Assembly (NCBI GenBank): GCA_003144275.1
Contig: NJBF01000034.1
Location: 1 to 32,000 of the forward strand
Length of the DNA: 32,000 bases
From: Candidatus Heimdallarchaeota archaeon B3_Heim
Lineage (GTDB): Archaea; Asgardarchaeota; Heimdallarchaeia; Hodarchaeales; Hodarchaeaceae
Reading direction: 5' to 3'
The translations under genes were made by a program, and so were the position numbers. The notes under the pieces were generated by a model. The model ran no database searches and was not told the DNA's origin. It saw only the letters and a program-made list of their open reading frames with translations. This document shows positions 26,570 to 29,348 of the stretch, in pieces. Positions within the stretch are counted from its first letter, which is position 1. Every line of letters begins with the position of its first letter.

Positions 26570-27190
26570 ATGTCACGAGCAAAAATGGATTTCGCTGAGG
26601 GAATATTCCGCTCAAATTTCAAGGTGTGTGTGCTTGGTGATGGAGGGGTTGGTAAAACGGCAATTATTCAACATTTACTGGGTAGGGCGTTTACAACGAA
26701 TTATCTACTTACCATAGGAACAGATATTTCGACATTTCAGCTTCATCATAATGGCAAAAATCTTCGTCTGCAGCTTTGGGATCTGGCCGGCCAAACTCGA
26801 TTTGATGTTGTTAGGAACTTGTATTTTAGTGGTGCTCGTGCAGGTGTTCTTGTTTTTGACCTGACCCGTGAAACATCACTTCACTCCCTTGCTAAATGGA
26901 AAAAAGAAATCTTCAGCCATTCTCAACGAAAAGTTCCCCTACTTATACTTGGAAATAAGTCTGATTTGGATGGTTCTCATTTCTCCTATCTTGATCCTGT
27001 TGACAATTTCATCCAAGAGATTGAGAAAGAATACAATAATGAATATGAGAATAACGAATTACAGGTTCCTTTTCACACAACTTCTGCCAAAACAGGTAAT
27101 AATATCTTGAAAGCCTTTGATTCCCTTGGACAAATATTGTTGACCTATCAAAAACAGACTAGTGCTATTCCAAAAATTCCATTGGAATAA
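26570..27190 (+). CDS. Rab-like small GTPase
   Basis: GDGGVGKT, TIGTDI, RLQLWDLAGQ, YFSGA, LVFDLT, GNKSD and TSAK; no C-terminal Cys. Confidence 0.92.
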   Translation: MSRAKMDFAEGIFRSNFKVCVLGDGGVGKTAIIQHLLGRAFTTNYLLTIGTDISTFQLHHNGKNLRLQLWDLAGQTRFDVVRNLYFSGARAGVLVFDLTRETSLHSLAKWKKEIFSHSQRKVPLLILGNKSDLDGSHFSYLDPVDNFIQEIEKEYNNEYENNELQVPFHTTSAKTGNNILKAFDSLGQILLTYQKQTSAIPKIPLE

Positions 27191-27214
27191 AAACTACCGT
27201 TATTCTCTTAGTAC

Positions 27215-28385
27215 TTACCGTGAAAAGTAATCTTTCATTTCTTCCAAGTGAACGCTTCCTAAATTCAAGGAAATTGGGGAAATTGTTATTAGTTTCTCCT
27301 CTAGTAAAACGTAACTATCGGTATCAATAGGTAAGTTGCTTTGCACTTGGCCCCAAAGCCAGTAAACAGGAATATTCCGTGGATCTAAAGCCTCAATTGC
27401 TTTATCAACGTACTTGACAGGACAGAGTTTAACAACTTTTATCTTTGTTGTTAGATCAACGCTATTGGGAAAGTTAACATTGAGAATTTTCACTGAATTT
27501 GGAAAAGGATTCGATAGAACGTGTGAAACAATTTCTTTGGCTCGTTTCGCTGCGATGTTAAATCTAGAAGAAGAATCCTGAGTTTTCTCGAAAAGTTCAT
27601 TTTCAGGTAGTTCTAAGGAAAACGCAAATGATGTAATTCCCAAGATACCTCCTTCTAATGCAGCTGCACAGGTGCCTGATGTGAAAATAGCATGAATTGA
27701 GGTATTATCACCATGATTTATTCCACTAAGGATGAAATCTGGGATTTTATTATACTGCTGCATACAAATTTTCTGACCAATGATTACGCTATCAGCTGGA
27801 GTACCATAAACAGAATAAGCCTGTATTTTCATGACTAGATTTGTCAGACAACTCTTGAAAAGAGTTCTGGACAGGATGAGTCACACATCCGCTATCCGGC
27901 AGATTAGCACCACTAAAAGGGTTACTATTCATTGGGACTACTTGAAGCATCCTTACTGCTGATATCCCCAGCGCTAATACCTCTCACGCCTAAAGGGTCA
28001 TTCTTCTCTTGCCTTTGACAGGTAACTCGTCTCACGTAGTTACAAGTGAATAAAACCCAAGAATTTAGGAATTTTTCTTTTCATCACCTCGCTTGGAAGA
28101 GGTTATGGAGGGAGACTTTTTATGAATATAAGAGAGAGGGAGAGGTTAGCGAATACGAGTAATCTCGCTTTGTCGGACAAAAATGATCATGTCATCGAGA
28201 AATTTCTCTTTCGCCTGAATTCTAACTGGTTGAGTATATGTTACTGATTTTCCTTTTCCTGATTGCTGTGTGGAAGGAGCAACGACAATAATGTCTCCTA
28301 AAGAACTCATTTCTTTAACTAGTTCCTTTAATCCTACGGCTTCTATGCCATCATCATTTGTAACTTAGAATAGCAAATATCCCAC
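27215..28385 (-). pseudogene. surE: 5'/3'-nucleotidase SurE, interrupted by a 358-bp insertion and an early stop/frameshift
   Basis: 5' part (not in track) GTG-GYLLF*VTNDDGIEAVGL...VVAPSTQQSGKG...KEKFLDDM joins in frame to the 3' part MKIQAYSVYGTPADSV...SGINHGDN...SGTCAAALEG once the insert is removed (~270 codons). Confidence 0.9.
27834..28191. mobile_element. Non-autonomous insertion element (MITE-like, possibly IS110/IS1111-type ends)
   Basis: Direct repeat TCATG at 27829-27833 and 28187-28191. Subterminal 12-bp inverted repeat TTTGTC(A/C)GACAA at 27840-27851 and 28170-28181. No transposase ORF. Confidence 0.8.
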
Positions 28386-28445
28386 TCTCAGGTGTTAATT
28401 TAACGATGTAAAATAATATCTCTGGCTTACTGATAGTTCAGACTT

Positions 28446-29348
28446 CTATTTCGCTAATTCTAATGTAAAAAGTGAATAATTATCAGTAATTTTTGGTTTA
28501 AATTGAACAAGAGTTTTAGCAATTTCACTACCTTCTTCTGTATTAAAATGCAAAGGGTATCTTTCCCAACCAGCCATTTTACATTCACGTGCAATGTCAG
28601 TAAGTAAAAGTGGCCATGAATCTTCAAATCCTGGTCGTGTAGCAGTAAAGCGTAGTACAAGCCTTGGTTTATCACTTGAAGGCTGATCTAAAAGAGGAGC
28701 ACTAGCACAAACATCCTGGGATTCTTGTGAAATAATAATACAATGGCCATCTTTCAAAACTTTATTTTTAAAGTAATCTTGGAAAAATTCTTCAGTTAAT
28801 CCTGCTTCTTGAAGCTCTTTATCGACTCTACCAAGCTCTATCAATGAATCTATGTCGGAAGTTGTAGCTAAACGCGATTTATATTTCGTTTTATCATCTA
28901 ATTTTTGATTACTAAGTTTTTCTATATCAAAACTGTAATCTAATCCTTTTACTTTAAGTATAAATCCTCTCTCTGTGAAAAATTCCCGAACCTTGGACCA
29001 TTGAGTTTTTATCCAATATTGGATTTCATCTGGGTTTTTCGATTTTAAATAGACCAACATATCTGAGAAGAGTTTATTCTGAACATCTGGAGAACAATCA
29101 GCTGTACACCAAGGGTAGCCAAGATAAAAAACTTTACTTGAAACCTGTGATGCCTGAATATACGCAAGGGGTTTATTCTCATCAGTAAAAGCGTATCGTA
29201 ATAAGCGGGGGTCCTTTTTATTCTTGATAATTTTCTGTTCAATATCTACCGCACTAACATTGCTCCCCGTATTGCTATTAAAAAGATCAGCTTGAATCCT
29301 CTCAAATCCCAATCCAGACTCGTAGAATTTATACTTAACATTCTCCAT
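28446..29348 (-). CDS. Putative tandem GNAT-fold protein
   Basis: Two halves with GNAT-like patterns (FYLGYPWC...REFFTERGF; SRLATTSDIDSLIEL...LRFTATRPGF). Confidence 0.55.
   Translation of the reverse strand: MENVKYKFYESGLGFERIQADLFNSNTGSNVSAVDIEQKIIKNKKDPRLLRYAFTDENKPLAYIQASQVSSKVFYLGYPWCTADCSPDVQNKLFSDMLVYLKSKNPDEIQYWIKTQWSKVREFFTERGFILKVKGLDYSFDIEKLSNQKLDDKTKYKSRLATTSDIDSLIELGRVDKELQEAGLTEEFFQDYFKNKVLKDGHCIIISQESQDVCASAPLLDQPSSDKPRLVLRFTATRPGFEDSWPLLLTDIARECKMAGWERYPLHFNTEEGSEIAKTLVQFKPKITDNYSLFTLELAK

Follow-up and report, generated by a model that had tools for sequence, protein, structure and literature searches.

Palindrome-associated transposable elements (PATEs) and their parents, TnpB-only (IS1341-type) members of the IS605 group, have been described in the haloarchaea Haloquadratum walsbyi and Natronomonas (Dyall-Smith et al. 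2011, PMC3119063). The mRNA of TnpB is itself the source of its omega RNA (PMC10278001), PATEs frequently code for omega RNAs used in trans (PMC10055086), and by an established rule the TnpB guide is the sequence lying beyond the right end (RE) of the element (PMC8612924, PMC10055086). In the ISGst families of Geobacillus stearothermophilus the target and element-end motifs differ at one or two positions only (PMC10055086). Here we analyse an insert of 358 bp in a surE gene of Candidatus Heimdallarchaeota archaeon B3_Heim, which lies in a stretch of 32,000 nt (positions 1 to 32,000 of contig NJBF01000034.1, forward strand, assembly GCA_003144275.1; hereafter the window). We interpret the insert, with a probability of roughly 0.8, as a non-autonomous PATE, or miniature inverted-repeat transposable element (MITE), of a TnpB-only, IS1341-type transposon of the IS200/IS605 superfamily in Hodarchaeota-type Asgard archaea. 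The insert is a known kind of element and not the founder of a new family; a reading of the letters without database searches (the sequence-only reading) had not recognised the family and suggested a new archaeal mini-element, whereas the insert fits published PATEs (PMC3119063, PMC10055086).

The surE gene lies on the minus strand and is split into two pieces with 358 bp between them:

28188–28385, minus strand: surE 5′ fragment, starting with GTG at 28385 and carrying an in-frame TAA at 28365–28367
27830–28187, minus strand: the mini-element proper, 358 bp, with its left end (LE) at 28187 and its RE at 27830, on the same strand as surE
27215–27829, minus strand: surE 3′ fragment (open reading frame [ORF] 27215–27832), 93% identical to the orthologue of congener G013

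When the 358 bp are taken out, the surE frames 28146–28310 and 27215–27832 (both minus strand) fuse as ...KEKFLDD-M-KIQAYSV, and the unbroken orthologue of G013 (93% amino acid identity) reads ...KENFLTN-M-NIQAYSV at the same place. DNA alignment of the two genes leaves exactly 358 extra bases in the window, and the empty site in G013 is a single (T)ATG. The restored frame and this 358-bp difference bear out the earlier proposal of a clean insertion of a non-autonomous mobile element. Comparison with surE orthologues, also suggested at that stage, finds the gene likewise uninterrupted in G018, G001 and G016, and a 2.6-kb contig from public run X5, representing a relative about 94% identical, spans the unoccupied site, again with a single (T)ATG. 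The best-matching public run contained 0.23 of the sampled words, and runs labelled metatranscriptomic are probably DNA; no contig bridged the surE site in the likely source sample, the only bridging contig being that of run X5.

The insert holds no ORF longer than 54 amino acids (aa), is co-oriented with surE and restores the frame on removal, as would also be expected of a non-mobile part of the gene itself, for instance a regulatory insert, an intron or the spacer of a split gene. We give that explanation practically no credence, because it is refuted by the uninterrupted orthologues in the four congeners, and more than 20 copies sit in unrelated places; an Rfam scan of positions 27000–29000 at E ≤ 1 returned no family, intron and ribozyme families included, and surE also has a premature stop. 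The orthologues are without a spacer, so the outcome that the sequence-only reading had named as fatal to its own proposal, a native split-gene spacer, did not materialise. The stop is a second lesion besides the insertion: codon 7 of surE is TAA in the window versus TTA in G013, and contigs of runs X2 and X5 have A at 28366 (plus strand), which gives TTA. Because it carries the insertion plus the premature TAA, the window copy of surE is a pseudogene. The consequence for the host is modest, since a second, intact surE paralogue (44% identity) exists at G000:C19:85307–85864. Directly downstream of surE lies a gene for a 206-aa small Ras/Rab-like GTPase with a GDGGVGKT motif (window 26570–27190, plus strand).

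The boundaries of the mini-element were set from 28 copies with unrelated flanks. Its left 116 nt as read on the plus strand are the reverse complement of the tnpB 3′ end and RE of a 1.42-kb element, and because 27830–27945 is thus homologous to these parts, the transposon is oriented on the minus strand, co-oriented with surE. From LE to RE its parts are as follows:

28188–28191, minus strand: CATG at LE, read as the pre-existing target and the core of its transposon-adjacent motif; it forms the surE codons GA(C ATG)
28170–28180, minus strand: LE subterminal palindrome TTGTCCGACAA, 7 nt inside CATG
28050–28169, minus strand: LE interior, a diverged counterpart of the full-element 5′ leader, with weak collinear matches to full-element positions 58–115
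28007–28049, minus strand: "block 3", homologous to tnpB codons ~205–222 and 83–89% identical to full-element positions ~750–804
27830–27945, minus strand: RE module, 116 nt, made up of RE and what remains of the final ~30 tnpB codons
27841–27851, minus strand: RE subterminal palindrome TTGTCTGACAA, 7 nt inside CATG
27830–27833, minus strand: terminal CATG of RE, which with the preceding T makes the element-encoded motif TCATG

Palindromes of the type TTGTCNGACAA, 7 nt from each end, are shared by the insert (TTGTCAGACAA at 27841–27851, TTGTCGGACAA at 28170–28180), by about 22 mini-copies and by the 1.42-kb elements, and in transposon orientation every copy has the layout flank-CATG-ATCAWWT-palindrome-interior-palindrome-ATNTAGT-CATG-flank. 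The inverted repeats are therefore, as had been noticed from the letters, subterminal and themselves palindromic, lying 7 nt inside CATG at both ends. The 5-bp direct repeat TCATG described in the same reading is present on both sides (27829–27833 and 28187–28191), but only CATG holds up across the family: the fifth base belongs to the element as its first position at one junction, and at the other it is a flanking A, favoured but not constant. Among RE ends that also carry the omega-core marker, 60 of 74 terminate in ...TAGTCATG, and with a looser end pattern the RE-type tetranucleotide is CATG in 69 of 90 ends. By analogy with IS200/IS605 we would assign the LE CATG to the flank and the RE CATG to the element. 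The LE interior keeps the relic of a ribosome-binding site and start codon (GAGGTGATGA, 28077–28091) and may conceivably have served as a promoter.

Within its own genome the insert has 46 BLAST matches. About 22 of the family members are full copies of 357–369 bp, all in unrelated flanks; five of these (the window copy, two on C67, and one each on C82 and C85) are 98–99% identical, some 17 others are 68–79% identical, and further pieces of the young subfamily sit at contig ends. The 98–99% identity of this subfamily shows that it has moved recently. The palindrome is found 69 times in the genome, its pairs lying either ~330 bp or ~1,390 bp apart, and the longer spacing belongs to elements of 1.41–1.42 kb that carry the palindrome near either end and have one ORF of ~417 aa. 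This ORF is TnpB (NCBIfam guided_TnpB, 215 bits against a cut-off of 100) and also matches Pfam OrfB_IS605 and a Cas12f1-like Zn-ribbon domain; a look-up in the ESM Atlas gave generic TnpB clusters with no useful taxonomy. At least six intact tnpB copies are present, plus several fragments at contig ends. The search for copies that the sequence-only reading had suggested thus leads to a full-length partner with the same ends, and that partner is a TnpB element.

Mini-element and full element share four homology blocks in the same order, namely the left end (positions 1–22), the diverged leader, about 40 nt from mid-tnpB (block 3) and the last 116 nt. Because the blocks are collinear, the alignment identifies the mini-element as a descendant of the 1.42-kb TnpB element by two internal deletions. 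A relic of the TnpB C-terminus is at 27858–27950 of the insert, which in keeping with the definition of PATEs (PMC3119063) is too short for a transposase, has termini homologous to those of an IS605-type element and holds C-terminal coding relics. The subterminal repeats, together with the short identical sequence at both junctions, had earlier pointed to IS1111/IS110, with a DEDD recombinase recognising the repeats and TCATG as the recombination core. That lead fails, and we regard it as having almost no chance of being right: the insert is demonstrably a deletion derivative of an element whose full-length form encodes TnpB, and neither DEDD_Tnp_IS110 (PF01548) nor Transposase_20 (PF02371) has a match in the genome, whose assembly is 94% complete.

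Other metagenome-assembled genomes (MAGs) likewise hold the family only in its ~360-bp and ~1.42-kb forms. Paired end motifs in five MAGs always flank one of two things, ~360 bp or a 1.42-kb stretch with tnpB as its only gene, and unpaired end motifs, inspected for a larger autonomous element, disclosed none. Smaller derivatives also occur: units of 33 bp that consist of termini only (CATG, 7 nt, one palindrome, 7 nt, CATG) lie at C8:64499–64531, C35:1462–1494 and C50:11147–11179 of G000, and a 146-bp derivative lies at G000 C57:96043–96188. Products of these kinds are expected from deletion between the two palindromes.

The likeness to the haloarchaeal PATEs is extensive. Both are gene-less, with near-terminal palindromes that match TnpB-only elements of the same genome; both arose by internal deletion, keep coding relics of the TnpB C-terminus and form homogeneous young subfamilies; and both have terminal-only mini forms from deletion between palindromes, here the 33-bp units. 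Target duplication is absent there, and a short terminal/target oligonucleotide is found in both. In both, moreover, mobility without an intact IS200-type transposase is a puzzle (PMC3119063). They differ in that the host here is an Asgard (Hodarchaeota-type) archaeon, in that the ends here are near mirror-symmetric whereas the haloarchaeal palindrome lies at a longer distance from the 5′ end, and in that the target and element-end motifs here share the palindromic core CATG.

In the TnpB of the family (protein P0001, G000:C61:11104–12354, and homologues) VIGYN occupies the place of the expected RuvC-II glutamate, for which a glutamate in VKEAYTSQ, ~46 residues downstream, is a candidate substitute. 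In sequence this TnpB matches the branches with a "rearranged" catalytic site (PMC10691335). A second, unrelated TnpB lineage in the genome (G000:C48:22888–24276 and 7 further copies, 8 in total) carries VLEDL, the canonical motif, together with an HTH_OrfB_IS605 domain at the N-terminus, and has no adjacent tnpA.

The RE module shares 79–89% identity with the RE of four full elements out of five; for the fifth and most diverged, C8, the figure is 67–69%. With its downstream flank the module contains the following:

27897–27933, minus strand: variable stem-loop A, in which six pairs have both sides changed in 2–9 sequences
27874–27890, minus strand: near-invariant hairpin GGATG...CATCC, whose pairs are the same in 28–29 of 29 sequences
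27850–27866, minus strand: hairpin 2 (AACTCTT...AAGAGTT), which adjoins the RE palindrome
27810–27829, minus strand: flank 3′ of RE, within surE, the presumptive guide of an omega RNA from the window copy

Hairpin 2 occurs among the copies as 21 distinct sequences, all of which fold, with roughly ten different stem sequences; its pairs 342–345/351–354 of alignment A2 have both sides changed in 8–12 sequences. Stem-loop A keeps its hairpin fold in every copy except L055, despite differing sequences, and the compensatory changes in stem A and hairpin 2 span mini-elements and full elements and several genomes. For the GGATG/CATCC hairpin, covariation neither supports nor refutes the fold, because the pairs are nearly invariant; its loop GUGACU could pair with AGUCAU just before the guide position to form a pseudoknot. 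In the full element the RE region also encodes the TnpB C-terminus, whereas in the mini-element the frame is lost and the structure kept, as expected of a TnpB omega-RNA scaffold. By the measure of comparative sequence analysis, then, the module shows itself to be a structured, RNA-like domain under purifying selection, and we read it as a predicted TnpB omega (guide) RNA scaffold. In the marine-sediment runs X1 and X5 (window 27817–27910) the summed contig depth over the RE module is several hundred, compared with 4–9 over the flanking surE, so the module is highly repeated in those communities.

Together with the core of the RE module and the palindromes, block 3 (CTYGTAACTACGT...GTCAAAGGC) is the best conserved part among the mini-element subfamilies (0.94–0.98). 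It is nearly invariant in nucleotides, third-codon positions included, even in tnpB genes whose proteins are only 43% identical (e.g., L061, L062, L066 and L068), and thus looks like an overlapping nucleic-acid signal. In the mini-elements a stem that encloses block 3 shows some covariation; pairing between block 3 and the RE module, searched by eye, yielded only 5-nt matches.

The flanks of the copies bear on how the family inserts. Counts were pooled from distinct ends of this genome and the other MAGs. Of 78 LE-type ends, 46 have CATG just before the LE, TATG and CATA being the next commonest, and the base before this CATG is A in 25, C in 14, G in 7 and T in none (n = 46). After the RE CATG the next base is A in 38, G in 15, T in 10 and C in 6 (n = 69), so that the mirror of the T excluded on the LE side is the commonest base (A) on the RE side. 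Mirror-image flanks would be expected of a symmetric enzyme that used a palindromic site in both orientations; the observed distributions are not mirror images, and orientation is therefore tied to the asymmetric context VCATG|A. Insertion thus keeps to one orientation with respect to its surroundings, not-T before the LE CATG and mostly A after the RE. The site at which the element sits has, when empty, a single CATG. Beyond CATG the copies have no further direct repeat, and in no copy does the same variant tetranucleotide stand on both sides (e.g., TATG...TATG), which mildly favours the absence of target duplication.

These observations tell against a family bounded by terminal inverted repeats (TIRs) and moved by a double-strand transposase, DDE-type or other and unrecognised, that duplicates CATG and makes the mini-element a true MITE. 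This explanation would account for ends that are symmetric over 22 bp with CATG on both sides, and for the fact that searches of genomes carrying the family found neither an intact Y1 transposase nor an IS607-type serine transposase. Published DDE-linked TnpB branches, moreover, all have inverted terminal repeats, and the missing canonical RuvC-II glutamate of the family TnpB is a trait of several TnpB branches (PMC10691335). Set against this are flanks that are not mirror-symmetric, with T never found before the LE CATG, no copy with a matched variant "duplication" of the TATG...TATG kind, and only two size classes in five MAGs, neither with a second gene. Nor does any DDE element of the genome share the ends of the mini-element: two IS4-like families, one IS701-like family and one of unknown type (470 aa) are present, and the TIRs of all four differ. 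We consider a transposase of this kind quite unlikely, and with it the DDE-mobilised MITE that the sequence-only reading had weighed, for which no DDE element with these ends and no symmetry in flank composition was found. The 470-aa ORF, probably an unclassified transposase, is multi-copy (G000:C30:3961–5370, C31:8753–10162 and C58:47507–48649), has an N-terminal Cys-rich motif and no Pfam match, and lies between inverted repeats that start with GAGATTTCG. Among described elements, DDE-associated TnpB and Fanzor-carrying eukaryotic transposons (PMC10691335, PMC3627910) resemble the present family in their TnpB-family cargo and symmetric, inverted-repeat-like ends, but here no DDE gene is linked, the flanks are asymmetric and there is no duplication beyond the 4-nt motif.

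If the family were an IS607-type element, with a serine recombinase acting at a short core common to junctions and target, the identical core at both junctions would be the expected product, and IS607 elements do carry TnpB genes (PMC8612924). The family TnpB, however, scores 52 bits with NCBIfam IS607_TnpB against a cut-off of 350, and the only resolvase-family gene of the genome (G000:C2:6891–7451) has the ordinary order, catalytic domain and then helix-turn-helix, adjoins a reverse-transcriptase-like gene and not a tnpB, and is without the palindrome. Against it stand also the asymmetric ends and the dinucleotide core of IS607. An IS607-type origin is accordingly very improbable. The resolvase gene belongs to a segment (G000:C2:3002–7451) that also has a 417-aa reverse-transcriptase-like ORF, recognised by eye, and a large methyltransferase-like ORF, and that may be a defence island.

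Several findings weigh against the assignment to IS200/IS605, the missing transposase among them. The Y1 (HUH) profile PF01797 has no match in the 94%-complete assembly, and phmmer with the Y1 proteins of relatives against all ORFs of at least 50 aa found none. Nor did an intact Y1 gene turn up in four further MAGs with the family, where a single pseudogene adjoins an unrelated TnpB, although absence from draft MAGs is no proof. The remaining difficulties lie in the ends. With CATG on both sides, a target plus an element-end motif and a 4-bp duplication give the same picture, and the sequence-only reading was right to leave target-site duplication versus fixed core undecided. The outer 22 bp of the two ends form an imperfect inverted repeat with 77% complementarity and have the palindrome 7 nt from CATG on each side. 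Classical IS200/IS605 ends are asymmetric, and such complementarity is out of the ordinary in the superfamily. The palindrome itself is short, with arms of 5–6 bp and a single central base; it would fold into a hairpin of little stability and might just as well be bound as double-stranded DNA. The candidate DNA-guide positions 5′ of the RE palindrome, finally, vary by subfamily while CATG is constant.

Much of the end symmetry derives from the self-palindrome that both ends have; the 7-nt linkers agree at 3–4 positions only, and beyond 24 bp the two ends are unrelated. Among 30 relatives Y1 matches occur in only four, and those examined adjoin other TnpB lineages without the palindrome. Cas1 was also not found in the genome. 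The enzyme behind the recent burst might be encoded in DNA that the assembly does not contain, or on a different replicon. A circle or tandem RE–LE junction is absent from the genome, the examined loci and metagenome contigs from the Joint Genome Institute (JGI), which carries no weight, since assemblies are not expected to contain such junctions.

Because the family has spread recently in archaea that appear to have no intact Y1, IS607-type or Cas1-like enzyme, and because its ends are near-symmetric around a palindromic CATG, it may use a mover of another kind. It would then be moved by an unrecognised enzyme or mechanism and be a prokaryotic counterpart of the TIR-bounded Fanzor transposons, which we think unlikely. 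Heimdallarchaeia-type Asgard archaea are often regarded as close kin of eukaryotes. If such a mover existed, block 3 would be a candidate for its cis-acting site.

Under the preferred assignment to the TnpB-only IS200/IS605 elements, we propose that the mini-element is moved by a transposase supplied in trans, inserting by single-strand "peel and paste" immediately 3′ of a VCATG target without duplication, as in IS200/IS605, so that the second CATG would be the element's own terminal motif (TCATG). The RE module would be expressed as an omega RNA, either from the leader that the mini-element has kept or through transcripts that run on from surE, and TnpB from full-length copies would process the transcript and use the RNA in trans. 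With the adjacent surE flank 27810–27829 as guide, TnpB would cleave the empty site once it is resealed (VCATG followed by a match to the guide), and the cut at this donor site would force re-copying of the mini-element. The occupied site, with TCATG as a presumably poor target motif, would escape cutting; this scheme is proposed by analogy with described systems (PMC8612924, PMC10055086, PMC10278001).

The ISGst PATE-like elements (Meers et al. 2023, PMC10055086) offer a parallel in having LE, RE and an omega-RNA scaffold (a predicted one here) with no gene, in a presumed reliance on TnpA and TnpB supplied in trans, the former for movement and the latter for retention, and in target and end motifs that differ slightly. 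Geobacillus, in contrast, has a matching Y1 TnpA, shown to excise all families, of which none was found here, and the sequences and structures are unrelated. With ISDra2 and IS608, canonical IS200/IS605 elements that carry both TnpA and TnpB (PMC8612924), the family shares TnpB, an omega RNA (again predicted here) that overlaps the gene 3′ end and RE, subterminal palindromes, insertion beside a 4–5-nt motif and a precise empty site. Unlike them it has no tnpA and has symmetric ends, and its TnpB is without the canonical RuvC-II glutamate and of the "rearranged" type (PMC10691335).

By DNA similarity among the 30 sampled relatives, the family is confined to the same genus. A 26-mer from the RNA core, searched in ~185,000 species genomes, occurs only in MAGs labelled Candidatus Hodarchaeota or Heimdallarchaeota, in agreement with the Asgard archaeal setting suggested earlier. 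The 26-mer has no match in viral contigs and one in JGI metagenome contigs, which is another tnpB-only copy at a contig end. The young subfamily that includes the surE copy is specific to this genome, its best match in G013 being 78% identical.

The many "structured RNA" and "unknown MITE" signals in this genome thus belong to one transposon family. For Asgard archaea the family is a natural data set, with dozens of diverged copies of a predicted TnpB guide-RNA scaffold that show clear covariation, and it also offers VCATG as a predicted target motif and a TnpB that is compact (417 aa) and rearranged in its catalytic site. The spread of TnpB-only elements and their gene-less derivatives without a detectable TnpA is a puzzle that was raised for haloarchaea in 2011, and this family presents it again in an Asgard archaeon.

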